Below, one piece after another: positions 6,473 through 41,411 of a DNA stretch of 47,946 bases. Under the pieces are notes generated by a model, which worked only from the letters and a program-made list of their open reading frames with translations, did not search any database and had not been told where the DNA came from. The translations under genes were made by a program, and so were the position numbers. The stretch lies in IMG/VR virus record IMGVR_UViG_2681813146_000002. One strand, written 5' to 3'. The stretch is from a virus. Its lineage: Duplodnaviria > Heunggongvirae > Uroviricota > Caudoviricetes. Position 1 is the stretch's first letter, and the number at the start of each line of letters is the position of its first letter.

Positions 6473-6936
6473 TTGTGGGTATGCTTGGTACAATGCCTTT
6501 TGTTGCCTCATCAATAGTGGTGAATACGTTCAACAATTTTAAAAGGACGTCAAAGCGTCGTGTAGCGCGCCATGATGTTATTGGGCTTAAACCTGTTCTG
6601 GAGGATATAGGTCCAGATCTGGATGAAGTTGGTTTTAATATGCGGCTGGATACAACACTTGGCATTGTTCCATTGGCTGCGCTTTCATTACTTAGGACAA
6701 TGCAATCAATTCAGGAAGTAAATCCTGTTGTAATTGGTATTCAGTATTTTGGTAATTTTATAATTACAGATATAGAGGAATCATGGACTTATTTCGGTCC
6801 AACTGGGAATCCACGAGTGATTATCGTCGGCATTAAATTACAGGAGGTCGGACAGACCTCTCTGAAAGAAGCATTAGTTGATATTGCTGGCAATATAGAG
6901 TCAAAAACTAGAAGTGCGTTAGGTAAATTATTATGA
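6469..6936 (+). CDS. Tail/baseplate protein, family uncertain
   Basis: 155 aa, translationally coupled between the gpV-like and gpW-like genes. Confidence 0.4.
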   Translation: MIVGMLGTMPFVASSIVVNTFNNFKRTSKRRVARHDVIGLKPVLEDIGPDLDEVGFNMRLDTTLGIVPLAALSLLRTMQSIQEVNPVVIGIQYFGNFIITDIEESWTYFGPTGNPRVIIVGIKLQEVGQTSLKEALVDIAGNIESKTRSALGKLL

Positions 6937-16418: not shown

Positions 16419-16447
16419 AAGCCCCTGTTGCAAAGGGGCTTTTTTGT
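16419..16447 (+). terminator. Rho-independent terminator after the toxin-antitoxin pair
   Basis: GCCCCTGTTGCAAAGGGGC hairpin followed by a T-run. Confidence 0.6.
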
Positions 16448-16450
16448 GCT

Positions 16451-16568
16451 CATAGAATTATATAATTATAGATTTATATAAAAAAGCGCTTTACGGGTGG
16501 GAAAAAATTTCCTAAGGTTATACCCGAAACCGAGCGATACCCGCCCTGGTTAAACCGGAGATAACCCG
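16451..16568 (+). promoter_or_regulatory. Conserved promoter/operator/leader cassette, copy A
   Basis: AT-rich palindrome, then TTTACG-N17-TAAGGT, then leader CCGAAACCGAGCGATACCCGCCCTGGTTAAACCGGAGATAACCCG before the ATG. Near-identical to copies at 25843 and 33034. Confidence 0.55.
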
Positions 16569-16949
16569 ATGAGCATGATTAAAATCCGCAAAGACGCTTT
16601 CCTTAAAATTCAAACTATCCTGGCTGGTTCTGTTGGCGTGATTTGCCGTTCTTCTTCAAGCCGCATCGATGACGGCTACGATGATGAGTATCGTGTGTCC
16701 TCGTGCGACGAGGCTTTAACCTGGCTGAAGGAGAATCAGGAACGTGCCCAGGTATATCTGGAAACAGAGAACGGCAATCAGATGTTGCGTATTAGCGGTC
16801 GTTATGGATTTGAAACTACATTCATGGCCTATTTTAATCAGGCTTACTTTGACAAGGAGTTGGCCTGGTACACTGATCGCATGAGCAAAAGCGAGCCAGC
16901 CCCGATTACACCGCCGAACAATAAACCATTTTTATTCCTCGTTAAGTAA
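16569..16949 (+). CDS. Hypothetical protein, cassette-driven accessory gene
   Basis: 126-aa ORF immediately after cassette copy A. Confidence 0.45.
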   Translation: MSMIKIRKDAFLKIQTILAGSVGVICRSSSSRIDDGYDDEYRVSSCDEALTWLKENQERAQVYLETENGNQMLRISGRYGFETTFMAYFNQAYFDKELAWYTDRMSKSEPAPITPPNNKPFLFLVK

Positions 16950-25792: not shown

Positions 25793-25842
25793 AAGTGTCA
25801 TTTTGAGCTTTTTGATGGTGTGTAGACATCGGGAACATCGAA

Positions 25843-25960
25843 AATCTATAAATATATAATTATATATTTATATAAAAAGTGCTTTACAGGTGGGAAAAAA
25901 TTTCCTAAGGTTATACCCGAAACCGAGCGATACCCGCCCTGGTTAAACCGGAGAAATCTG
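25843..25960 (+). promoter_or_regulatory. Conserved promoter/operator/leader cassette, copy B
   Basis: Same AT-rich palindrome, TTTACA-N17-TAAGGT and leader as copy A, ending at the ATG of the next gene. Confidence 0.55.
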
Positions 25961-27028
25961 ATGAATAAACAAGTAATTATTTCTGACTGGATCAACAACC
26001 CTAACAGCCTGTTAAGCACTGATACTGGCTACCTATTACGCCATGTTAATGGTCGTATGGTCAAAAGCGATGAGCACGAAACCTTTTTCTTTGTTGAAGA
26101 CGATGGGCGCATCTATGAGGATGGTTACTCTTATGAAGCCCAAACTGGTTGTATCCCTGCGGAGCTGGTGGACGTAACAGAAGATCTGCGCAAAGCATGG
26201 CTTGAACAGCAGCAGCGCGGAGATGATTACGTAAACACCTATCAGGAACGCCAGAACGCGCGTCTTGCCCGATATATTGCTCGTGCAGAAAAAGCCAGAA
26301 AAGAAGGTGCGGTAGCGCATAAGCGAGCGCATGACCTGTTGGATGTGATCCCGTTAGGCCAGCCGATTTTAGTTGACCATTATAGCGCGAAAGGCCATCG
26401 CCGCCGTTTGTCTAAAGCTGATGCGTTATTCAGAAAAGCGTTTGTTGAATGCGAAAGTAAAGCATCACACTACGAGAGCAAAGCCGCAGGTGTTGGTCGT
26501 AATGGAATTTCGTCTGATGATCCTGATGCGCTATTTAAGTTGCTTCGTAAGCTGCAAGGCTGCATGAAGTCACACGTCAAAATGAAGGCCGCAAATAAGG
26601 CCATTCGCAAATACAAAAAAGACCATTTACAGCAGCTTTCTGCATTAATCGATCTCAGGTTTACAGAAAGCGAAGCCAAAGAGTTACTGGCCGGAGATTT
26701 CTGTGGGCGCATCGGATTCCCTTCATACGCACTGAGCAACAATAACGCCGAAATCAAACGACTACAGAGCCGTATTAAGGAGCTTGAATCGGTCAAGTCT
26801 GTAACAGGAGCACAGCGCGAAGAATACGACGGCTTTTCTATGGAGATAGATCCAGAGGATAACCGCATCCTGTTTTATTTCCCTGGCAAACCAGAGGCAA
26901 ACATTCGTTCGCTGCTTAAATCACGCGCCTTTAAGTGGAGTCCAACCCGTAATGCATGGGTTCGCAAGATTACTCCAAACGCTCTGGCTGATGCCCGATA
27001 TCTGAAAGAATCGCTATTGAAAGCCTGA
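25961..27028 (+). CDS. Hypothetical protein, possibly DUF3560-containing
   Basis: 355 aa with motif GQPILVDHYSAKGHRRR. Cassette-driven. Confidence 0.4.
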   Translation: MNKQVIISDWINNPNSLLSTDTGYLLRHVNGRMVKSDEHETFFFVEDDGRIYEDGYSYEAQTGCIPAELVDVTEDLRKAWLEQQQRGDDYVNTYQERQNARLARYIARAEKARKEGAVAHKRAHDLLDVIPLGQPILVDHYSAKGHRRRLSKADALFRKAFVECESKASHYESKAAGVGRNGISSDDPDALFKLLRKLQGCMKSHVKMKAANKAIRKYKKDHLQQLSALIDLRFTESEAKELLAGDFCGRIGFPSYALSNNNAEIKRLQSRIKELESVKSVTGAQREEYDGFSMEIDPEDNRILFYFPGKPEANIRSLLKSRAFKWSPTRNAWVRKITPNALADARYLKESLLKA

Positions 27029-29907: not shown

Positions 29908-30291
29908 GCTGTAGTGAGAAGCCATGCGATTACGAGCAGTATTCAGATATTCAGAGCGGGTAATGAGGCACATACAACCGAAAACATGGCAGAAATTGGA
30001 TTCTGTGGGAGTTAAGTTGGAGAAGATTACTCAACTTAAGCAGTGGCATATCGGCGAATATTATGGAAGTCCTGGCCGGGATGTTCGTTTGGTAAAAAGT
30101 TGAGTATTGTTTTTTTATTGATCAATTAACCACGATTTGAAGGTTTTTTATGGGAAAACCTTGTTTTAGGTGGTAACTGGGTGTAGTGTTTCATTTAACG
30201 TAGTAAAACTGCGTTAAGCGATTACCGCGTAATTTGTTGCTTTATGAAGCCCTGCCTTTTTCGGCGGGGCTTTTTTTTAACGAGGATTTCA

Positions 30292-30687
30292 ATGTCAGCA
30301 GAACCAATTTCCGGTACGGCCGTTGCTGCTGGTGGCCTGATGGGTGCCAGCGTTTTTGGTATTGCAACTGGTATTGATTACGGCGTTGTATTCGGGGCAT
30401 TTGCTGGCGCTGTTTTCTATGTTGCTACAGCGGTGAATATTAGCCGTCTCAAGCTGATTGGCTATTTCTTTACATCGTTCATTGTTGGAGTGATTGGAGC
30501 GCCGTTAGTTGGCTCATTTCTTGCCAAATGGACCAGCTACAACGATCGTCCTCTGGATGCGCTTGGTGCGGTTATTGTGGCTGCATTGACAATTAAAATC
30601 CTCACGTTCGTAAACAGCCAGGATCTCGGTAGCATCTTTGGAATGCTTTCCCGCTTACGTGGAGGGGGTTCAAATGGTAAGCAGTGA
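30292..30687 (+). CDS. Holin-like membrane protein
   Basis: 132 aa with several hydrophobic helices. Start ATG 30292 after GAGGA. First gene of the lysis cassette, after a terminator-like hairpin. Confidence 0.5.
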   Translation: MSAEPISGTAVAAGGLMGASVFGIATGIDYGVVFGAFAGAVFYVATAVNISRLKLIGYFFTSFIVGVIGAPLVGSFLAKWTSYNDRPLDALGAVIVAALTIKILTFVNSQDLGSIFGMLSRLRGGGSNGKQ

Positions 30688-30970
30688 CCCGTCAGCACTG
30701 ATTAATGCGGTGCTTTGCACAGTAATAGTAATGGCGCTGATGTTTTATCGACGGAAAGACTCAAGGCATCGTCCATTTGTTTCCTTTCTGGCTTATATCT
30801 ACGTCATTGTATACGCCAATGTTCCCTTCCGTTATGTGTTTGGTCTTTATCAAGAATCCCATTGGCTGGTGGTTATTGGAAATCTGATTATCTGCATCGT
30901 TGTTCTGTATTTCAGGGGCAATCTGGCGCGGATAGTTGACGCATTAGGATTTAATCATGACCAAAGATGA
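30674..30970 (+). CDS. Second lysis-cassette membrane protein (holin/antiholin-like)
   Basis: 98 aa, hydrophobic. Start ATG 30674 after GGAGGGGG. Confidence 0.45.
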   Translation: MVSSDPSALINAVLCTVIVMALMFYRRKDSRHRPFVSFLAYIYVIVYANVPFRYVFGLYQESHWLVVIGNLIICIVVLYFRGNLARIVDALGFNHDQR

Positions 30971-31499
30971 GATTTTTAACAGCATTCTTGGAAAAGAGGG
31001 CGGCTATGTGGATCACCCTGACGACAAGGGAGGCCCAACAAAGTGGGGCATTACTCAGAACACTGCCCGTGCTCATGGATACCGTGGCGATATGCGAGAT
31101 TTAACCCGCGAACAGGCACTGGAAATCCTTGAGGCTGATTACTGGTACGGACCACGCTTTGATCAGGTGGCCGCATTATCCTCTGATATTGCCGCAGAGC
31201 TGTGTGACACGGGGGTGAACATGGGGCCAACAGTGGCGTCAAAAATGCTTCAACGCTGGCTGAATGTGTTCAACCTGCGCGGGAAGCTGTATCCCGATTT
31301 GGATGCAGACGGACGAATCGGTCCACGTACCATTAATGCGCTGCGTGCTTATCTTGGGAATCGGGGAAAAGACGGCGAACGTGTGATGCTGACGTCGCTG
31401 AACTGTACGCAGGGCGAACGCTATCTGGAGTTGGCGGAGAAGCGCGAGGCTAATGAGTCGTTTGTCTACGGCTGGATGAAAGAGCGAGTGGTGGTATGA
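30957..31499 (+). CDS. Endolysin, glycoside hydrolase family 108-like with C-terminal peptidoglycan-binding region
   Basis: N-terminal EGGYVDHPDDKGGPTKWGIT is GH108-like by recollection. Confidence 0.65.
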   Translation: MTKDEIFNSILGKEGGYVDHPDDKGGPTKWGITQNTARAHGYRGDMRDLTREQALEILEADYWYGPRFDQVAALSSDIAAELCDTGVNMGPTVASKMLQRWLNVFNLRGKLYPDLDADGRIGPRTINALRAYLGNRGKDGERVMLTSLNCTQGERYLELAEKREANESFVYGWMKERVVV

Positions 31500-31774
31500 C
31501 TGGTTTGAAGGCCGTTTTGTCATTTATTGGCACAATTGTATTGGTTGCATTTGGCGCGTTTGGTTTTGGTCGTATGAAGGGGCGAGAAAAGGCCGAAGAT
31601 GAAGCTGAAAAGCAGCGCATTAATGAGAATGCAGCCGCCGTAAAAGCCACTGCGGAGCGGCGTATAGAAGTGACAAAAGAGGTGGGGAATGTACAGCAGA
31701 GTGTTAACCATATGGCTGATGACGATGTTGATCGCGAGCTGCGGGAGTCGTGGAAGCGTCCCGGTGGTGGTTGA
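31496..31774 (+). CDS. Inner-membrane spanin (Rz-like)
   Basis: N-terminal transmembrane helix then a charged coiled-coil region. Follows the endolysin. Confidence 0.55.
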   Translation: MTGLKAVLSFIGTIVLVAFGAFGFGRMKGREKAEDEAEKQRINENAAAVKATAERRIEVTKEVGNVQQSVNHMADDDVDRELRESWKRPGGG

Positions 31775-31898
31775 TACCGCCTGTGATTGGGTAAAGCCCA
31801 TCTACCTGACTGATCACGACATCGATGTTATGGACCGCCAGACAAAGAAAGATATTCTGGCTCATAACATGGCATGGGAAATCAACTGCCGAAAGTAA
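31719..31898 (+). CDS. Outer-membrane lipoprotein spanin (Rz1-like)
   Basis: Lipobox LIASC in MTMLIASCGS. Overlaps the Rz-like gene out of frame. Confidence 0.5.
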   Translation: MTMLIASCGSRGSVPVVVDTACDWVKPIYLTDHDIDVMDRQTKKDILAHNMAWEINCRK

Positions 31899-32067
31899 TA
31901 TATATTTCTATAATTATATAAATATATAGTTACAACATTCTATGCGCTTTTCTCATGGGCGCACGCATCAACCATGTTTGTCTGATATGCCGCCGCGCCC
32001 AAAAATCCTGAATTTATTGGCTGGGATTTTCGTGCGCGGCGCCACACCAGACAAACAAATCAAATAT

Positions 32068-32143
32068 GGCCCCTTAGCTCAGTGGTTAGAGCAGGCGACT
32101 CATAATCGCACGGTCATCGGTTCAAATCCGGTAGGGGCCACCA
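32068..32143 (+). tRNA. tRNA with anticodon CAT (Met, or Ile2 if lysidine-modified), CCA encoded
   Basis: Manual cloverleaf: acceptor GGCCCCT/AGGGGCC, D-arm GCTC..GAGC, anticodon loop CTCATAA, T-arm with TTCAAAT loop, discriminator A plus CCA. Confidence 0.8.
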
Positions 32144-32450
32144 ATTCACTCTCACACATAAAGATAAGCGCGGTGGAGTTACTTCTTCGTGCTCATCTTT
32201 ATGCGTGCCTGGTGCGCATTTCGGGCGAACGTGGGGCTAAGTTACAGGCAGGGCCTGTTATCCGCAAAGGGGTAAAAGCTGGAGCGGCACGGAACTGTAG
32301 CCGTGTTACCAAAACAGCGTTGTCGGGCGATATCCGGCACACAACAGGCAAGGGCATTAATCAGTCTGGTTAGTGCCCTTTTCGTTGTGTTTGCTGTAGA
32401 GCTGGCCAGCGTTATGACTGCCGGAGATAAGCGCCGGAGACACAACTAAC

Positions 32451-33038
32451 ATGGAGGCAATTGCATTGTTTAATCTGATTTATGCAGATCCCCCCTGGGA
32501 ATACAAAGACAAGTGTAAGGATGGGAATCGTGGCGCTGGTTTTAAGTATCCAACGATGAAAGCTGAGGATATTGCTCGTATTCCTGTCTGGCAGCTTGCT
32601 AATCCTGAATCGTGTTTGTTGGCCATGTGGTGGGTTCCGACTCAGCCAGAAGAAGCGTTGCTGGTGGTGAAAGCATGGGGATTCAGGCTGATGACCATGA
32701 AGGGCTTCACATGGAACAAATGTGGTAGCCGACAACCAGATAAGCTGGTGATGGGGATGGGGCATATGACTCGTGCAAACAGTGAAGATTGCTTGTTTGC
32801 GGTAAAAGGCAAACTGCCGACCCGCCTTGATGCGGGGATCATTCAGTCGTTTACATCGCCTCGTCTGGAGCATTCTCGGAAGCCTGATGTGGTTCGTGAC
32901 AAGCTGGTAAGGCTGTTAGGTGATGTTCCCCGTATTGAGCTGTTTGCTCGCGGTGATTTACCTGATGGCTGGCATGGCTGGGGCAACCAGTGCAATGGAG
33001 GTATCCAGTTGCATGATGCTCTCTGGCAAGTGGCATAG
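32451..33038 (+). CDS. MT-A70-family N6-adenine DNA methyltransferase
   Basis: DPPW catalytic motif in LIYADPPWEY. Size 195 aa. Confidence 0.65.
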   Translation: MEAIALFNLIYADPPWEYKDKCKDGNRGAGFKYPTMKAEDIARIPVWQLANPESCLLAMWWVPTQPEEALLVVKAWGFRLMTMKGFTWNKCGSRQPDKLVMGMGHMTRANSEDCLFAVKGKLPTRLDAGIIQSFTSPRLEHSRKPDVVRDKLVRLLGDVPRIELFARGDLPDGWHGWGNQCNGGIQLHDALWQVA

Positions 33039-33150
33039 AATTATATAATTATATATTTATATAAAAAGCGCTTTACAGGTGGGAAAAAATTTCCTATGGT
33101 TATACCCGAAACCGAGCGATACCCGCCCTGGTTAAACCGGAGATAACCCG
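33034..33150 (+). promoter_or_regulatory. Conserved promoter/operator/leader cassette, copy C
   Basis: Near-identical to copies A and B (TATGGT in place of TAAGGT). Begins at the methyltransferase stop codon. Confidence 0.55.
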
Positions 33151-33420
33151 ATGAAAGTACAAGACCGTGAAGTAGTAAAAAACCTCCTGCAATACCTGAC
33201 CTCAAAAAACCTGACGGGCAGCGTTGAGTTCCGTGAAGCGTTAAAACATTTCAACGTCACTACGGTTTATCGTTGGGAAAACCAACATTCTGAAAGACCG
33301 TATGTGGTGGATGTTTTTGCGCCTGATATTGAGTGCGGTTTTGAGCGCCATTCATTCAAAAAGAAACATTCCGCTGATGTTTTTTGTGAGGTTGTATGTG
33401 CGGCAGGAGATGATGAGTGA
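33151..33420 (+). CDS. Hypothetical protein, cassette-driven
   Basis: 89-aa ORF immediately after cassette copy C. Confidence 0.4.
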   Translation: MKVQDREVVKNLLQYLTSKNLTGSVEFREALKHFNVTTVYRWENQHSERPYVVDVFAPDIECGFERHSFKKKHSADVFCEVVCAAGDDE

Positions 33421-33617: not shown

Positions 33618-33691
33618 ACCGTAACGATAACGAACAACGAGCCTCGGCAATTGCCGGGGCTTTTTTACATCCAGACAAAGGAGAACATGGG

Positions 33692-34147
33692 ATGCCTTCG
33701 ACAAGCACCAAAAAAGAAATGGCGGTTAGTGATGTGCTTTATGCGCTTTCGACTATATGTGACGGAGCAATGATGAGGATGAAAGTCCTCCATGAAGCAT
33801 ACGGAAAAAGTCACGATGAGGCAGCTAAAGAGTGCCTGAATGAGATTGTGGACTTCATTGATAGCCATCGGTCGCTGATCGCTCTCGATAACCAGCCGCA
33901 AGCCGAAGAATGCCAGAAGCGCGAGTATAAAACGATATATGGGAATAAGTTCTTCTGTCTAAGCGAGTTGGCTGCAAAGGTGGCCGACATTCTGGAGAAC
34001 AACGGCGGTCGAATGCGTCAGGTTAGCTATCAGTCTGAATATGAATCTCTAATCATGTTAGTTGATCATTTAGTTGATACAGGAGCTTTACAGCTCAACT
34101 GCCTAAGGCTATCTGGTCACCCGATAAAAATGAATGGAAGGATATAA
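33692..34147 (+). CDS. Hypothetical protein
   Basis: 151-aa ORF. Confidence 0.35.
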   Translation: MPSTSTKKEMAVSDVLYALSTICDGAMMRMKVLHEAYGKSHDEAAKECLNEIVDFIDSHRSLIALDNQPQAEECQKREYKTIYGNKFFCLSELAAKVADILENNGGRMRQVSYQSEYESLIMLVDHLVDTGALQLNCLRLSGHPIKMNGRI

Positions 34148-34149
34148 CC

Positions 34150-34356
34150 GTGGACTTGCCGAGTGATTTGTTCTGGTTTCCGCTTCCAATAAGAGATTTG
34201 TTGGTATTTCTGGCTGGCGCTTACGTCTGGAGAAAAGCGAAAGACACCTCGTTATCTTTGAGGTTTGTTTTAGCTATATCGGTAGGAACCGCGCTGGGTA
34301 CGGCGTATCTCTTGACATTACTGGAGATATTCATTGAAGAATGGATAGTTTCATGA
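34150..34356 (+). CDS. Small two-helix membrane protein
   Basis: 68 aa with two hydrophobic segments. GTG start. Confidence 0.3.
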   Translation: MDLPSDLFWFPLPIRDLLVFLAGAYVWRKAKDTSLSLRFVLAISVGTALGTAYLLTLLEIFIEEWIVS

Positions 34357-34505
34357 ATGGTCTTGGCATTTTTCTGGTGATTATGGCCGTGTGGTTTTGT
34401 TTCTCGCTGGTGGTTATTGCTGGTGTCCTGTGGCGCATCTTAGTGGCGCAGAGAGCTTTTCGGCGTAAGCGAGAGCAAATGCACCTTGATTTATATCGAA
34501 AGTAA
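34353..34505 (+). CDS. Small single-pass membrane peptide with basic C-terminus (50 aa); not in the ORF track
   Basis: Manual translation MNGLGIFLVIMAVWFCFSLVVIAGVLWRILVAQRAFRRKREQMHLDLYRK. ATG overlaps the upstream stop (ATGA). Terminator hairpin at 34504..34530. Confidence 0.3.
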   Translation: MNGLGIFLVIMAVWFCFSLVVIAGVLWRILVAQRAFRRKREQMHLDLYRK

Positions 34506-34554
34506 CTCTTACAGCCTCGCGGTGTCGCGGGGCTTTTTATTTTCAGGTGATGTT

Positions 34555-34872
34555 ATGGAAAAGAAAGAAGATAAACCGATTGCCATTGGTGCAGAGTCTG
34601 TTCCGTTTAAGTTTGAATTATCCCAACTGGTAACAATGCGTATCAGTGAAGAGTGGGGAGAAGTTCAAGCCCGTGCTCAGTATGCAAATGGCGAAAACCA
34701 GTATCTGATTCACTATCAGGCGGCTGATGGTCGTGCTACCACAGAGTGGTTCGGTGAGTCGATGCTGATTGCGATGGAAGATGATCGTTATCCAGGCTGC
34801 CCTGTTTTTGCCTGTGTTGATTTGCCAGAAGGCGCGGTACTTGAAGACGACGAAACGGCCGCCTCCGTTTGA
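34555..34872 (+). CDS. Hypothetical protein
   Basis: Start taken at MEKKEDK after the terminator; the track ORF starts 34486. Confidence 0.35.
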   Translation: MEKKEDKPIAIGAESVPFKFELSQLVTMRISEEWGEVQARAQYANGENQYLIHYQAADGRATTEWFGESMLIAMEDDRYPGCPVFACVDLPEGAVLEDDETAASV

Positions 34873-35117: not shown

Positions 35118-35741
35118 ATGACAAAACATCTTAATGTGGTTTCTTTACCACTTTCTGTGTTGATTGGTTATGAAAAGAACGCTCGCACACACTCCGTGGA
35201 GCAGGTAGATCAGATTGTTGCCAGCATACAGGAGTACGGATGGACTAATCCGATCCTGATAGACGAGAACAACGTTGTAATTGCTGGTCATGGTCGAATT
35301 GCTGCGGCCACTCAGTTGGGGATGGATGATGTTCCCTGCATTGTTCTGGAAGGGCTAACGGAGAATCAGAAGAAGGCATATCGTCTGGCCGACAACCGTA
35401 TTCCGCTGAATGCTGGTTGGGATGAAGAGTTGTTAAGCGCGGAGCTTGCAGATCTTGCGGCCGATGATTTTGCTCTGGACTCAATTGGTTTTACTCAGCG
35501 CGAGCTGGATAACTTATTGAGTGCGGCGGTCTACGATGACACAGAGGGTATGGATATCCCATTTGAGAAGGATGAGGCCAAATCAGGCGTAAAAGTTCAG
35601 TACCTGTCATTTGGAGGTCATAAAATCCCGGCAACGGATGAGGAAGCAGATCGTTTTGACTGCGCGGTATCTCGTTATGTTGATGATAATGGCAGCTATA
35701 TCGGATTTGTATCCGCATTGCTGGCTGGGGAGGTGTGCTGA
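35118..35741 (+). CDS. ParB-N-domain (ParB/Srx-fold) protein, copy 1
   Basis: Motif VVIAGHGRIAAATQLG. Paralogous to 38408..38998. Confidence 0.55.
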   Translation: MTKHLNVVSLPLSVLIGYEKNARTHSVEQVDQIVASIQEYGWTNPILIDENNVVIAGHGRIAAATQLGMDDVPCIVLEGLTENQKKAYRLADNRIPLNAGWDEELLSAELADLAADDFALDSIGFTQRELDNLLSAAVYDDTEGMDIPFEKDEAKSGVKVQYLSFGGHKIPATDEEADRFDCAVSRYVDDNGSYIGFVSALLAGEVC

Positions 35742-37114
35742 TGCTTCATCTCAATTACGACATAACGCACCTACGCGGCGCGGAATATAACCCGCGTTTT
35801 ATTGGTGAGGATGATCTTGCGAGGCTGGCGGAAAGCGTCAGGGAGCTGGGGCTTGTGAAGCCATTGATAGTGCGCGGCGATTTGCTGGTGGCGGGACACC
35901 AAAGGACGAAGGCGCTACGTAAGTTGGGAATAACGCGTGCTGCGGTGTATGTGTTGCCCTGTGAAACGACGGTATACGACGAAGTACGGTTTAACCAACT
36001 GCATAACGGAACGGATTTTGATAGCGGAGATGAGCGTTGCAGGGTGTCCGGTCTGGAAGATAAGCATGGTTTTGTTCAGGTATCGGCAAGCCAGATCTCA
36101 GGCAATATGCGCGCGAAAATGGCATATGTTCGAAAGAACATAGCGGAACTGGTTATCAAGTATGGTCCGTGGGGTGGTTGTGTTGCTACTCAGTCTGGTG
36201 AGGTTATTCACTGTGCTCAGTATGCATTAGCAGCGAAGATGACGCGCACACCGCTAACGGTGTTTGTGATCCCTGATGTTGAGAAGGAAAAATACCAAAG
36301 TTATCTGAATAAAACTTATGGTGTATTTGAGTATTCTCATCTGGAGAAAACAACATACATCCAGACGTATGCGCAGCTTATGCGGTTGCGTAATGGTGGC
36401 AGCCTGAAATCAAACCTGTATGAGTCGTTGATCCTCCCGATCATTGCCAAGACGCCAAGAGGAATTGATTTTGGTTCGGGTCAGGGAGACTACGCGCGAA
36501 TGCTCAGGGCAAAGGGATATAACCTGCATGATCTCGAGCTTTTCCGCCGTAAGGGCGCTGGAAACACTCTGGATAGGACCGCAACAAACCGGATGATTGA
36601 TACGCTGGTGGACGACTTAAAAACGCGAGGGCGTTACGACTACGTGATTTGCGATAGCGTTTTGAACTCGGTCGATAGTGTCGAGGCTGAATGGTCCGTT
36701 CTGACGGTTCTGAAAGGCTTGTGTAAAGCTGGTGGGTCAATATTCTTTTCTGGCCGTAGCCGTGGAGAGCTGGAAACAGTCCTGAAGCAAACACAAGCTG
36801 CGAGTTCCAAAAGCCGGCTTTATTTTATCGATCATAACGGTTTTACCGCGTTGTACCGGAAGGGGCACTGGTTTTACCAGAAGTTTCACTCTGATGAGGA
36901 AGTGAAGCAGTTGTGTCGTGTACATGGTTTCAGGATTAAGCGGTCAATATTCAACTGTAAGAGCTGGTATTTGCACGTCATTAACGATGATTCCCTTAGT
37001 TGGGCGAGTCTGGAGAAAGCTGTTCGTTTTGAGTTTGAGTTGCCGTTGCCTGGTGGTTCAACAATCGGACGATCTGATGATGTGCTGGCGGCTTTCCGGC
37101 CGTTGATTAAGTAG
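35735..37114 (+). CDS. Fusion protein: ParB-N-like domain plus class I SAM-dependent methyltransferase domain
   Basis: N-terminal LLVAGHQRTKALRKLG. C-terminal glycine-rich motif I IDFGSGQGDYA. No DPPY-type motif seen, so the substrate is unknown. Confidence 0.5.
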   Translation: MLMLHLNYDITHLRGAEYNPRFIGEDDLARLAESVRELGLVKPLIVRGDLLVAGHQRTKALRKLGITRAAVYVLPCETTVYDEVRFNQLHNGTDFDSGDERCRVSGLEDKHGFVQVSASQISGNMRAKMAYVRKNIAELVIKYGPWGGCVATQSGEVIHCAQYALAAKMTRTPLTVFVIPDVEKEKYQSYLNKTYGVFEYSHLEKTTYIQTYAQLMRLRNGGSLKSNLYESLILPIIAKTPRGIDFGSGQGDYARMLRAKGYNLHDLELFRRKGAGNTLDRTATNRMIDTLVDDLKTRGRYDYVICDSVLNSVDSVEAEWSVLTVLKGLCKAGGSIFFSGRSRGELETVLKQTQAASSKSRLYFIDHNGFTALYRKGHWFYQKFHSDEEVKQLCRVHGFRIKRSIFNCKSWYLHVINDDSLSWASLEKAVRFEFELPLPGGSTIGRSDDVLAAFRPLIK

Positions 37115-37130
37115 TGTGTAGGAGGCGCTG

Positions 37131-37850
37131 GTGGCTGACAGAATTGAGATAAAGATGGATTTTTCTTCTCAGGATATTCAACGACAACTCCAGCGCCTTG
37201 AAGAGCGCGAATTGCCGTTCGCAATGGCGCTTGCGGCAACCAGAACGGCAAAGGCTTCTCAGGCTGCGATTAAGAATGAAATTAATCGAGTATTTGACAG
37301 GCCCACGCCGTGGATTCAGAACTCTACTTACGTTTTGGCCGCAAAGAAGAGTGATCCTACAGCCATTGTGTATGCTCGTGAATGGGGTGGAACGCCAGCC
37401 CCTGTAACGTTGACTCCGCAAATCGAAGGCGGTCAACGACAGTACAAGCGCTCAGAAGGGGCACTAAGGGCTGGTGGATATTTGCCTAACGGCTGGCAGC
37501 TTGCTCCTGGTCCCGGCGCAAAGCTGGACAAATACGGGAATATTTCGCGGGGGCAATTACAGCAGGTCTTATCTGGTCTAAGAGTTCAGCGAGATGCGCA
37601 TCAAAATCGCCGTCAGGGCAAGCCTACGGAGTTTTTTGTTGTTCGACCTGGTACAAGTAACCCGCTTCAACCAGGCGTCTGGCAGCGCGTTGGGCGGCGT
37701 CCTACGTTGATCCTTACGTTTATCCAGCAACCTAACTATTCGCAGCGTCTTGATTGGCATGGCGTGGCGCTGCGTGCTGGTGAGGATGCGTTTGCTGATG
37801 AAGTCACAAAGGCTATTGATGACATCCTTTCTAAGACGTTCTCTCGTTAA
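37131..37850 (+). CDS. Hypothetical protein
   Basis: 239-aa ORF. GTG start after GGAGG. Confidence 0.35.
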   Translation: MADRIEIKMDFSSQDIQRQLQRLEERELPFAMALAATRTAKASQAAIKNEINRVFDRPTPWIQNSTYVLAAKKSDPTAIVYAREWGGTPAPVTLTPQIEGGQRQYKRSEGALRAGGYLPNGWQLAPGPGAKLDKYGNISRGQLQQVLSGLRVQRDAHQNRRQGKPTEFFVVRPGTSNPLQPGVWQRVGRRPTLILTFIQQPNYSQRLDWHGVALRAGEDAFADEVTKAIDDILSKTFSR

Positions 37851-38151
37851 TCATCGTGTGGTTGATGGTGTTGTTATGCAGGGTGTATTCACTGTGTTCT
37901 GTAGCGTCGCTCGCAGGCTGTCTGTGGGTGGGCACGAGCATCGTTTCATCGTCCGGCAGAATTGGGTCCTTCTGGCCAAAAGCGTTGGATGCGGGTCATT
38001 CGAACCCCGATGTTCGGCTAGCTAAACGTGAAAAAAGTTAGGTTAAAAGTTGCGGTAAAAGAAATTTACTCATCTCATTGAAAAATATCGGGAAAACGTG
38101 ATTTTTTGCTGTATTTGTGCTGGTAAAAAGAAAGTAGAAAATTTTCTTTTA

Positions 38152-38336
38152 GATCATCAAGATACGCGCAGATCTTTAACCAATGTGATGTTGTTCTGAT
38201 AAAAATCGTTATAAATCATGCAAATACATCCAATCTTTTAACCAAAACACCATCTCAAGATCCTTTTTACTTATAAAAACTTAATAAAATCAGATGATTA
38301 TGCTGGTTTGTGTGATTTTTTATGAGTAAAAAGATC
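38152..38336. promoter_or_regulatory. AT-rich intergenic region with four AGATC (GATC) sites upstream of the packaging genes; candidate pac or regulatory region
   Basis: GATC at 38152, 38171, 38259 and 38333, each preceded by A, within a ~550-bp noncoding stretch (37851..38407). Confidence 0.3.
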
Positions 38337-38407
38337 GTCATTTTTCTCTTTTAGTATCAATAAGTTAAACAGTTTTCTTTAACCTGTTGTGTTATGGCGG
38401 TTAAAAA

Positions 38408-38998
38408 ATGGCTCTAAAAATCGAATATTTACCAGTCGGTAAGCTGCTCAGATACGCCAAAAATTCACGGACTCATTCAGATGAGCAAGTTGAACAGTTG
38501 GTGAACAGTATCCGTGAGTTCGGTTTCACTAATCCTGTGCTGATCGATGAAAAGAATGAACTGATTGCGGGGCATGGGCGGCTTGCAGCAGCCGAAATTC
38601 TGGAAATGGATAAAGTTCCAGCGATTCGGTTGAGTAACCTTTCTGAAAAACAGAAGAAGGCTTACAGGATTGCAGATAACAAGCTGGCCTTAAATGCTGG
38701 CTGGGATATGCAGCTTCTGGCCGAAGAAGTCAAAGCGTTAATGGATGATGATTTTGATATTGATCTGCTTGGGTTTAATGATGCAGAGCTTGACGAAATG
38801 TTAAGCGATGAACAGCCGCAGGAAGAAGACGATAATTCTTCCCCTGTTGTTCAAATTAAGTACCTGGCTATTGATAAAGAACGTATTCCCGCGACGGATA
38901 TGGAAATTGCATTGTTGCTGGATGTTTATCGTCAGTACCACGACGCGCATGAAACGCATGAGGGATTTGTTCAGTATCTTGCTAATGGTTGCAAGTAA
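38408..38998 (+). CDS. ParB-N-domain protein, copy 2
   Basis: Motif ELIAGHGRLAAAEILE. Roughly half identical to 35118..35741 by eye. Directly upstream of the terminase small subunit. Confidence 0.55.
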   Translation: MALKIEYLPVGKLLRYAKNSRTHSDEQVEQLVNSIREFGFTNPVLIDEKNELIAGHGRLAAAEILEMDKVPAIRLSNLSEKQKKAYRIADNKLALNAGWDMQLLAEEVKALMDDDFDIDLLGFNDAELDEMLSDEQPQEEDDNSSPVVQIKYLAIDKERIPATDMEIALLLDVYRQYHDAHETHEGFVQYLANGCK

Positions 38999-39554: not shown

Positions 39555-41411
39555 ATGGGCGAAACAGTATGGAGCACCGCTTTTTTCCGTGCGCTTCGCC
39601 CTAAATCACGGCTAACTGTTTCCGAATGGGCTGATAAGTATCGTCATGTAGCGCCGGGAACGTCTCCAGAGCCAGGGCCGTGGCGTACAAGCCGAGTGCC
39701 ATATTTGCGTGAACCAATGGATGTTATTGGTGACGCTGATACAGAAACAGTAGTGATGCAATGTAGCTCGCAAATTGGTAAATCCGAATTACAGCTAAAT
39801 GTTATGGGTTACTTTGCAGATCAGGAGCCATCTCCTCAGTTGATGATTTATCCAACGGTAGAGGCGGCTGAGGCTTTTTCAAAAGAGCGTATTGATCCGA
39901 CGTTCAAATATTCCCCTGGTTTGAAACACAAGCTGCATGAAGGGAAAGAGGGGCGCGGTGCAGCCAAAAAGTCCAGCACGACTATACGTATGAAGCATTA
40001 CGCTGGTGGATATATAGCACTTGTTGGTGCTAATTCCCCAGCAGGTCTTGCATCCAGGCCAATTCGAATACTGTTAGCTGATGAGATTGATCGTTACGGT
40101 GTGACGCAGGAGGGCGACCCACTAAAACTAGGTATTCAGCGTACTACCAACTTTCATAATCGTAAGAAAGTTTTTGTTTCTACTCCTGTTTTGGAGGAAA
40201 CGAGCAAAATCCACAAGTGGTTTAAGCTCTCCGATCAGCGTTACTACCATGTTCCTTGCCCATGTTGTGGCACCATGCAGGTGATGAAATGGTCGCAAGT
40301 CAGATGGGATAAGAGCGATTCAGGTGAGGCGTTACCGGAAACGGCCAGATATGAGTGCTGTGAGTGCGGCGGGATTATGCGCGGATCTGGTAAACCAGAC
40401 GTTGATTGGTTGGCGAAGGGGGTATGGATAGCTGAACATACTGGAGTTAAAGGTATTGTTGGTTTTCATATTAACAGTCTTTACTCCCCGTGGGTTGCAT
40501 TGTCAGAGCTGGTTGAAGAATTTACGGAAGCAACCAGAAACCGCGATAAAAATGGATTAATGGAGTTTATTAACCTTAAGCTGGGTGAGCCATGGAAAGA
40601 GGATGCTAAAGACGATATCGATCCTGAATACTTGTTGCAACGCAGAATAAGGTTTGAAGAGTTTTTACCAGATGATGTTTTATTGTTAAGTGCTGGTGTT
40701 GACGTACAGGACACGTATTTAGTTTGTGAATTGGTCGGTTGGGGAAAAGGTAAGGAGTCATGGGGGATAGAATATAAAATATTCCCAGGTGATCCCGCAC
40801 AAGATGTTGTCTGGAAACAACTTGATGAATACTTACTCCGTAGCTGGTCATTCCGTGACGGTCGAAAATTACAGATTTCTTCCGTTTGTATTGACTCTGG
40901 TGGGCATTTTACGACAGAGGTATATCGCTTTACTAAGCCGAGAGAATCAAGGCGAATATACTCTATCAGGGGGCGTGGTGGGGTAGGTTTACCATTTATA
41001 GGAAAGCCAAGTAATAATAACCGTGTGGGTGCTATGTTGTTTAATTTGGGGGTTGATGATGGTAAAGGGACCATCATGGCAAGAATTAAACTACATGATC
41101 CTGGTCCTGGTTATATGCATTTCCCATTAGATTCTGACAGAGGATATGATACCGAATACTTTAAAGGATTATTATCAGAGAAGAAAATATTTGAATATAA
41201 AAATGGGCAGACAAAAGAAAAGTGGGTGAAAGTCTACGAGCGTAACGAGCCTCTTGATTGCCGTAACTATGCAACTGCCGCGATGGAAATTCTGAACCCT
41301 AATTTTAACTGGCTTGCCGAACAGGAAATGCGAGGTAATGTGTATGTGCAGAACTCGTCAGGTATACGTAGAAGACGCCGTAGAGTTATAAGTAAAGGCG
41401 TAACCATATAG
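39555..41411 (+). CDS. Terminase large subunit (lambda gpA-like)
   Basis: 618 aa with a Walker A-like segment near QCSSQIGKSE. Sits between TerS and the portal. Confidence 0.75.
   Translation: MGETVWSTAFFRALRPKSRLTVSEWADKYRHVAPGTSPEPGPWRTSRVPYLREPMDVIGDADTETVVMQCSSQIGKSELQLNVMGYFADQEPSPQLMIYPTVEAAEAFSKERIDPTFKYSPGLKHKLHEGKEGRGAAKKSSTTIRMKHYAGGYIALVGANSPAGLASRPIRILLADEIDRYGVTQEGDPLKLGIQRTTNFHNRKKVFVSTPVLEETSKIHKWFKLSDQRYYHVPCPCCGTMQVMKWSQVRWDKSDSGEALPETARYECCECGGIMRGSGKPDVDWLAKGVWIAEHTGVKGIVGFHINSLYSPWVALSELVEEFTEATRNRDKNGLMEFINLKLGEPWKEDAKDDIDPEYLLQRRIRFEEFLPDDVLLLSAGVDVQDTYLVCELVGWGKGKESWGIEYKIFPGDPAQDVVWKQLDEYLLRSWSFRDGRKLQISSVCIDSGGHFTTEVYRFTKPRESRRIYSIRGRGGVGLPFIGKPSNNNRVGAMLFNLGVDDGKGTIMARIKLHDPGPGYMHFPLDSDRGYDTEYFKGLLSEKKIFEYKNGQTKEKWVKVYERNEPLDCRNYATAAMEILNPNFNWLAEQEMRGNVYVQNSSGIRRRRRRVISKGVTI

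Follow-up and report, generated by a model that had tools for sequence, protein, structure and literature searches.

Two overlapping membrane-peptide genes and a terminator

The stretch of DNA analyzed here (hereafter the window; 47,946 bp, IMG/VR record IMGVR_UViG_2681813146_000002) is a complete or near-complete phage-plasmid, which combines RepA/ParA plasmid functions with a contractile-tail (myovirus-type) morphogenesis module. We focused on two short open reading frames on its plus strand, ORF1 and ORF2, which end at an intrinsic terminator. ORF1 (34150..34356) starts with GTG and encodes a 68 amino acid (a.a.) protein, predicted to form a helical hairpin in the inner membrane. The start codon lies 2 nucleotides (nt) past the stop codon of a 151-a.a. 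gene and is preceded by the Shine-Dalgarno (SD) sequence GGAAGGA (34136..34142) with a 7-nt spacer; Escherichia coli ATCC 25922, whose upstream module is an alternative one, shows the GGAAG-N6-GTG arrangement as well. ORF2 (34353..34505, 50 a.a., or 34341..34505, 54 a.a.) encodes a predicted single-pass membrane peptide with a basic tail, and its inner ATG overlaps the TGA stop codon of ORF1 as ATGA (34353..34356). The terminator, T2 (34513..34544, plus strand), consists of a stem at 34513..34534 (9 bp, 7 of them GC) followed by TTTTTATTTT, and has a folding energy of −16.6 kcal/mol (z = −2.6 against shuffled sequences). T2 is directly followed by the next gene, with the SD sequence AGGTGA and an ATG at 34555. 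The original prediction of two overlapping small membrane-peptide genes followed by a terminator thus had the coordinates and anatomy right; the arrangement is conserved in diverged relatives and the terminator looks functional.

The pair belongs to a recurrent element, a family of ~48-kb phage-plasmids in E. coli and Salmonella. Near-identical DNA is carried on plasmids of ~47–52 kb in 69–72 of 5,426 complete E. coli genomes, including that of ATCC 25922, and also by the plaque-forming Yersinia phages vB_YpM_39, vB_YpM_41 and vB_YpM_44. The terminase gene of the element occurs in 72 E. coli genomes, 69 of which also have the ORF1/ORF2 pair. It had been proposed that one of the two genes is missing from the annotation. 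One indeed is, but in the public records it is the 68-a.a. ORF1, not the 50-a.a. ORF2: PGAP and DFAST annotate ORF2 as a 50-a.a. hypothetical protein (for example, WP_170939265 and WP_001013684), whereas PGAP skips ORF1 in nearly every record and both programs leave a gap of ~206 nt in its place. Likewise, in most plasmid records the ORF1 match by tblastn had "none" annotated under it, and in a collection of 15 billion proteins ORF1 occurs in six small clusters only, several of which are frameshift or fusion artefacts. RefSeq therefore lacks a conserved 68-a.a. gene in nearly all of its entries for a phage-plasmid family present in ~1.3% of complete E. coli genomes.

We assigned topologies by the positive-inside rule, by which basic segments lie on the cytoplasmic side of the membrane. 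The two-helix description of ORF1 holds for residues 39–62, which form a clear hydrophobic helix, but less well for residues 7–27, where the first helix is weaker and broken by R15-D16. Both ends of ORF1 are acidic, the C-terminal one being the six residues EEWIVS, predicted to be periplasmic, and the two helices are joined by the basic loop RKAKDTSLSLR. ORF1 thus probably folds into a hairpin of two helices, with its ends outside and the basic loop inside. ORF2 had been described as one hydrophobic helix with a strongly basic tail, and the hydropathy profile agrees: a single strongly hydrophobic transmembrane (TM) segment is followed by a tail of ~23 a.a. with eight K/R versus two D/E residues. 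The net charge of this tail is +6 in the window and +4 to +6 across all lineages described below, in which the ORF2 product has 50–55 a.a., is almost wholly one TM helix and begins with an acidic stub of 3–8 residues. The predicted topology is N-out/C-in, with the acidic stub outside and the basic tail inside. The idea that the tail forms an amphipathic helix was rejected, because it scored no better than shuffled sequences.

Conservation of the two reading frames

Since short open reading frames are common by chance (66 ORFs of at least 25 a.a. in 4 kb), the existence of ORF1 and ORF2 is by itself not above expectation, and the case for their being genes must rest on comparison with relatives. 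In the E. coli group, we compared 28 loci comprising 20 distinct sequences. Both frames are open across these loci, that of ORF1 in 28 of 28, with three exceptions, a truncation of ORF2 and two shortened variants of ORF1. ORF2 of vB_YpM_41 (6742..6917 of locus L001), and identically that of vB_YpM_44, is cut short by a 1-nt deletion just past the TM segment, so either ORF2 is dispensable for lytic growth on Yersinia pestis or the two records share a sequencing error. In the plasmid pEC488-4 (around 1563 of locus L006), an in-frame 30-nt deletion removes residues 6–15 of ORF1. In the Escherichia fergusonii plasmid pRHB41-C23_4 (1479..1745 of locus L007), ORF1 stops four codons early and the TGA overlaps the upstream ORF2 ATG, again as ATGA. 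The pairwise ratio of nonsynonymous to synonymous differences (pN/pS) within the group is 0.47 for ORF1 and ~1.3 for ORF2, and is uninformative, as the other frames give similar values. More telling is the TM segment of ORF2, in which none of the 13 variable columns falls on a second codon position ((2/3)^13, ~0.005), as one would expect if hydrophobicity is kept. Recombination near 34478–34482 has given ORF2 at least three alternative 3′ ends; two of the resulting tails, MHLDLYRK and LFIDKFRQ, have equal length and residue pattern, yet match at only ~15 of 27 nt and encode the arginine by CGA and AGG, respectively.

More distant homologues were found in Salmonella Weltevreden (NZ_LN890526), S. 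salamae (CP053324) and the Logan/NCBI contigs L032, L035 and L037. The Salmonella-type relatives carry them at the same genome position, with ~50% DNA identity. Weltevreden encodes a 67-a.a. ORF1 homologue, whose ATG overlaps the upstream stop codon as ATGA, and a 50-a.a. ORF2 homologue that overlaps ORF1 by 13 nt. L032 and L035 encode ORF1 homologues of 70 and 72 a.a. and ORF2 homologues of 55 a.a., with a 28-nt overlap. In CP053324 and NGRA01000002, the ORF2 homologue occurs without ORF1 and directly abuts the upstream gene (TGAATG and TAATG). Overall, ORF2 and the terminator are present in all six lineages, and ORF1 in four of them. The hairpin stands at the same position 3′ of ORF2 in every lineage, with differing stems (ACCCGC...GCGGGT versus GCCTCGCG...CGCGGGGC). 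Across the lineages compared, ORF2 and the terminator stay together as a constant unit, to which ORF1 is an optional addition.

The ORF1 proteins of E. coli and Weltevreden align without gaps at 42% identity (BLASTP, 3e-20), with 48% identity of the DNA, and no other combination of frames aligns. The length of ORF1 is kept at 67–72 a.a. across the lineages. In every lineage pair, pN was lower than pS, with ratios of 0.38–0.66 for ORF1 (Fisher p, 7e-3 to 9e-16) and 0.36–0.68 for ORF2. For ORF1, pS between lineages amounts to 0.68–0.98, versus a pN of 0.30–0.46; synonymous sites are thus largely saturated, and the true ratios should be lower. Taken together, the comparisons indicate that ORF2 is almost certainly a translated gene, and that ORF1 is very likely one as well.

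The start codon of ORF2 is ambiguous. In-frame ATGs at 34341 and 34353 are present in all of the E. coli-group loci, and L032 likewise has two starts, 4–5 codons apart. An N-terminal extension of 4–5 residues, starting with MD, occurs in four lineages. In two of these four the inner Met is replaced by Ile, so that only the longer form is possible there, and two further lineages have a single start. We initially regarded the ATG at 34341 as the conserved start, and dropped this assignment because the single Met of the 50-a.a. forms in two lineages aligns with 34353. The comparative data are compatible with the 50-a.a. form, the 54-a.a. form or both. Neither ATG in the window has a good SD sequence, which fits re-initiation after translation of ORF1. 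In the three other ORF1-bearing lineages, ORF2 starts within an overlap of 13–28 nt, its ATG lying inside EW, QW or KW codons of ORF1.

The ORF1/ORF2 junction of the Salmonella-type relatives contains a 15-nt in-frame tandem repeat, AATGGAT plus 8 nt (L032, 1230..1275; L035, 1375..1420; L024, 2400..2445). This repeat appears to have created both the five-residue N-terminal extension of ORF2 (MDxxQ + M/I-DYV...) and a matching C-terminal extension of ORF1 (EWMVF + KWIT). A 12-nt duplication at the E. coli junction was considered and dropped, because the repeated GAATGG is out of frame. Only the Salmonella-type lineages show the in-frame repeat.

The pair is located in a variable part of the element. 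The terminase gene (39555..41411) has an identity of 99% or more across all of the 72 E. coli carriers, whereas the region at 33.7–35.0 kb forms a local divergence peak (3–5.4%, versus 0.1–1% in the flanks) with module swapping. Mosaic breakpoints lie at both ends of the pair, and three alternative modules occur downstream. The lysis cassette varies to about the same extent, so the high diversity is not peculiar to the pair. Both of these parts, the cassette and the accessory region that holds the pair, are mosaic and differ by up to 5–10%; the structural and accessory halves of the element are thus very unlike in diversity.

Terminators and a promoter-leader cassette

A second intrinsic terminator, T1 (33639..33672, plus strand), with a 10-bp stem (33639..33662) and a T-run, precedes the SD sequence and ATG of the 151-a.a. 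gene upstream of ORF1 (33692..34147, plus strand), which is the first gene between T1 and T2. The T1 hairpin and its leader are kept in the distant relative L037. In both T1 and T2, the SD sequence of the next gene follows within ~10–15 nt, leaving no room for a promoter. The pair was also examined for the usual marks of a moron: it has a terminator, no promoter lies between T1 and the genes, and the GC content of 0.44–0.455 equals the window mean.

A promoter candidate ~1.05 kb upstream of the pair is part of a promoter-leader cassette, Pc (33034..33153, plus strand). It comprises a −35 element (TTTACA), a 17-nt spacer and a −10 element (TATGGT; 33072..33100 for the whole), followed by a leader of ~45 nt, the SD sequence GGAG and an ATG. 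Pc is the third of three copies, all on the plus strand and each before an operon (16430..16580, 25823..25973 and 33012..33162, with cores at ~16.49, 25.88 and 33.07 kb). The copies are near-identical over ~120 nt and share the order of an AT-rich upstream part, TTTAC[A/G], a 17-nt spacer with the dyad GGAAAAAATTTCC, TA[A/T]GGT, a 45-nt leader, the SD sequence GGAG and ATG; the 30-nt core occurs three times in the window, versus zero expected. The cassette is ~90% conserved in Salmonella-type relatives whose genes reach 50–75% identity. It has no match in Rfam, and the leader fold is modest (−9.6 kcal/mol), with no covariation because the leader is almost invariant. The dyad in the spacer would resemble the layout of the P1 late promoters. 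The cassette may be the regulated (late or derepressed) promoter type of the element, and its leader possibly acts on the downstream terminators. The pair probably belongs to the operon headed by Pc.

The copy Pb, at 25882, stands at the head of the operon that extends into the lysis cassette and contains a strong internal terminator at 30246. This third strong terminator (30246..30273) stands just before the holin gene; like T1 and T2, it lies inside a co-directional operon with the next ribosome binding site directly after it. With three such intra-operon terminators, the genes downstream, including those for lysis and packaging, would need read-through or antitermination.

These features suggest how the pair might be expressed. 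The last codons of ORF1 (E/Q/K-W-I/M) contain the ORF2 start, so the two products would be translated from one mRNA and be linked in their synthesis. Transcription would start at Pc, and since a sister cassette heads the lysis-gene operon, the architecture suggests that the pair is probably made during lytic development. Its output would be set by read-through of T1.

Homology searches

ORF1, ORF2 and their divergent homologues were compared with Pfam, PHROGs, PADLOC, the PDB sequences and Rfam, with nothing at or near threshold. The sub-threshold Pfam matches are to the TM-plus-juxtamembrane segments of FtsL, BlaR1 and LapA; they lie below the curated cut-offs and reflect composition, namely basic residues after a TM helix. 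When a hidden Markov model of ORF2 built from diverse lineages was run exhaustively against 1.84 billion cluster representatives, seven proteins matched, all of them members of its own family. Word-indexed protein searches found only this lineage, and the GTDB representative genomes contained no ORF1 relative. A literature search with the locus tags, protein accessions and family name of the element found nothing relevant.

Possible functions of the pair

Since neither peptide has a soluble domain, we expect, with low confidence, that the pair would have to act within the inner membrane, either by binding a membrane protein or by self-assembling. Our tentative proposal is that the pair is a dispensable modulator of a membrane event in the lytic cycle, for which the timing of holin triggering, in an antiholin-like or holin-accessory role, seems the best candidate. 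The choice is based on ORF2, which is small and has one TM domain, a very basic C-terminal tail and, in some lineages, two starts. In its tiny size and strongly basic cytoplasmic C-tail, ORF2 resembles the dual-start holin/antiholin proteins S105/S107 of lambda and S68/S71 of phage 21, and in some lineages it has two in-frame starts a few codons apart; its TM domain with a highly charged basic C-tail is as expected of a holin or antiholin. ORF1, also a small TM protein, matches class II holins in size (68 a.a.) and two-helix layout. Its predicted topology, with the ends out, is however reversed, and in place of the charged, basic cytoplasmic C-terminal domain of holins it has an acidic C-terminal end, predicted to be periplasmic. 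A dispensable or timing-type function would fit a holin/antiholin pair: ORF2, truncated in two plaque-forming isolates, is dispensable for lytic growth if the deletion is real, and the operon of the pair shares its promoter type with the lysis-gene operon.

Several observations weigh against this proposal. The lysis cassette (30292..31898, plus strand) is complete without the pair and in a different operon. It encodes Phage_holin_8 and Phage_holin_3_7 proteins, a GH108 endolysin and an i-/o-spanin pair, that is, a 92-a.a. i-spanin (31496..31774) and a 69-a.a. Rz1-type o-spanin candidate (31689..31898) with the lipobox LIASC, whose gene overlaps the end of the i-spanin gene. An additional lysis accessory, as suggested originally, is thus not needed, which weakens that suggestion. 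The pair had also been placed far from the lysis cassette, which overstates the distance, as the cassette ends 2.25 kb upstream on the same strand; the pair is nevertheless neither in nor next to it, nor adjacent to the endolysin gene, being separated by a tRNA gene, a methyltransferase gene, the promoter cassette and a terminator. Neither ORF matched a holin, antiholin or other characterized family, and comparison with the two holins of the element by hhalign gave a probability below 1%, with no profile similarity for ORF1. Neither peptide has the periplasmic domain or canonical lipobox of a spanin. The dual start of ORF2 is not conserved across the family (Ile at the second position in two lineages, one start in two others), and its pN/pS of ~1.3 in the E. 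coli group suggests weak constraint on the exact residues. As for ORF1, its first helix is just marginally hydrophobic, and its all-helical AlphaFold model is of low confidence (pLDDT, 61.6) and was not used for a fold search. Finally, the timing of Pc activity is read from the genome architecture only.

A somewhat unlikely alternative, though almost as probable as holin timing, is superinfection exclusion in the lytic cycle or another host interaction, in which the peptides would block incoming phage DNA or protect the cell through an inner-membrane component, as do T4 Imm and HK97 gp15. Exclusion factors are usually small, wholly membrane-embedded proteins, and T4 Imm and Sp, HK97 gp15 and P22 SieA are likewise short, accessory, fast-evolving phage proteins of the inner membrane encoded in variable regions; T4 exclusion even involves one two-helix and one single-helix protein. 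The divergence peak and mosaic breakpoints around the pair, set against the nearly invariant terminase, the presence or absence of ORF1 between lineages, the apparent dispensability of ORF2 for plaque growth and the restriction of the family to one lineage would all suit such a role. However, the diversity is unspecific given the equally variable lysis cassette, and prophage superinfection exclusion (Sie) genes usually have their own promoter, whereas none was seen for the pair, whose GC content is moreover that of the window. There is no homology to known exclusion proteins in Pfam or PHROGs and no PADLOC match, and Sp and most Sie proteins have an exposed domain in the periplasm, while ORF1 and ORF2 expose almost no periplasmic residues. 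We consider it unlikely that the pair instead regulates some other membrane complex, such as a transporter, an FtsH-like protease or the division or envelope machinery. In having a single TM helix, a short charged tail and no soluble domain, ORF2 resembles AcrZ, MgtS, CydX and MgrB, single-pass proteins of 30–55 a.a. that bind larger membrane proteins, and the only likenesses in Pfam are the segments of FtsL, BlaR1 and LapA mentioned above. Those matches are compositional, though, and nothing indicates a specific target; AcrZ, MgtS, CydX and MgrB are chromosomal, each with a known partner, and share no sequence similarity with either ORF.

Two further explanations seem improbable. One is that only the ORF2 product is functional and that ORF1 is a coupling leader that delivers ribosomes, or is untranslated, which we judge very unlikely. 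The near-universal omission of ORF1 by PGAP, its GTG start, the weak SD sequences at the E. coli ORF2 starts, its absence from two lineages and the plasmids that lack ten internal codons or the last four would accord with a leader. A mere leader, however, should not show a protein conserved between lineages with saturated synonymous sites, similarity in this frame only, a length held at 67–72 a.a. and in-frame indels, nor a Weltevreden homologue with a proper ATG that overlaps the upstream stop codon. Coupled phage gene pairs joined by ATGA or TGATG likewise combine a stop-start overlap with a weak downstream SD sequence, and a fixed stoichiometry is expected of them; the overlap here is out of frame and spans 4–28 nt, and the ORF2 ATG lies within a conserved Trp codon context (A-ATG-G) of ORF1. 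Least credible is a membrane toxin, whether ORF2 with ORF1 as its protective partner, as the original prediction had considered, or a type I toxin for post-segregational killing. With fewer than 60 a.a. and one TM helix, ORF2 has the shape of a type I toxin, the element, as a plasmid, has to be inherited stably, and hok/mok/sok and the plasmid type I toxins likewise have a membrane peptide of ~50 a.a., translated in linkage with an overlapping upstream frame on a plasmid-like replicon. Against this, S. salamae CP053324 and NGRA01000002 have ORF2 but no ORF1, which disfavors a toxin-antidote pair. Moreover, unlike a Mok-type frame, ORF1 itself encodes a conserved membrane protein and is not a mere leader. 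The N-out/C-in prediction for ORF2 is opposite to the N-in/C-out topology of Hok, and ORF2 lacks a periplasmic domain such as the Cys-containing one of Hok. No match to Hok_Gef or another toxin family was found in Pfam and no antitoxin RNA in Rfam, and in place of the antisense RNA promoter of hok/mok/sok there is a single promoter-like antisense site (34646..34617), which is at chance level (4 found, 5.1 expected) and has no counterpart in the Salmonella relative. Relatives of the element also carry a conventional RelE/ParE addiction module.

Returning to a role in the lytic cycle, we speculate that ORF2, with ORF1 as an optional cofactor, might found an undescribed, lineage-restricted family of membrane effectors of phage-plasmids. 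ORF2 would then be either a single-helix antiholin or holin regulator with a dual start born from a duplication, or an inner-membrane exclusion factor, its dose being determined by terminator read-through from the triplicated cassette. Tiny membrane proteins of phages are numerous and mostly unexplored, and the pair enlarges their set; if it tunes lysis or excludes phages, it would be a compact two-peptide system that can be tested in a standard laboratory strain.

Gene neighborhood

In a RefSeq relative, the layout comprises RepA, ParA, a RelE/ParE module and an XRE repressor, followed by an early operon and the lysis cassette. Then come the tRNA gene, an MT-A70 methyltransferase gene, a run of small genes and several ParB/Srx-domain and methyltransferase genes, and finally the terminase, head and contractile-tail genes. 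pSLy3 was considered as a member of the same group and rejected, since it represents a different phage-plasmid group, the SSU5 type.

The 151-a.a. gene upstream of the pair belongs to phrog_14707, whose function is not known, and takes alternative forms of 81, 99, 251 or 260 a.a. among relatives. The gene after T2 (34555..34872) belongs to phrog_1935, also of no known function. In the window and its relatives, it occurs in forms of 87, 101, 105 and 136 a.a., and in one of 237 a.a. that is greatly extended at the N-terminus; a third module has a DUF2513 gene in its place. Further downstream, four genes with ParB/Srx N-terminal domains (35118..38998) immediately precede the terminase genes; one of the four (35735..37114) also encodes a fused methyltransferase domain. 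These genes and the MT-A70 methyltransferase gene (32451..33038) make up a dense DNA-modification cluster.

Within the lysis cassette, the o-spanin candidate is left unannotated by PGAP in the relatives and has a weak LysC-like Pfam match (E = 0.11). The tRNA gene (32068..32143) has the anticodon CAT and is assigned to tRNA-Met by ARAGORN and one GenBank record, and to tRNA-Ile (lysidine type) by RefSeq PGAP. A 143-a.a. open reading frame (31942..32373) that overlaps this tRNA gene is probably spurious.

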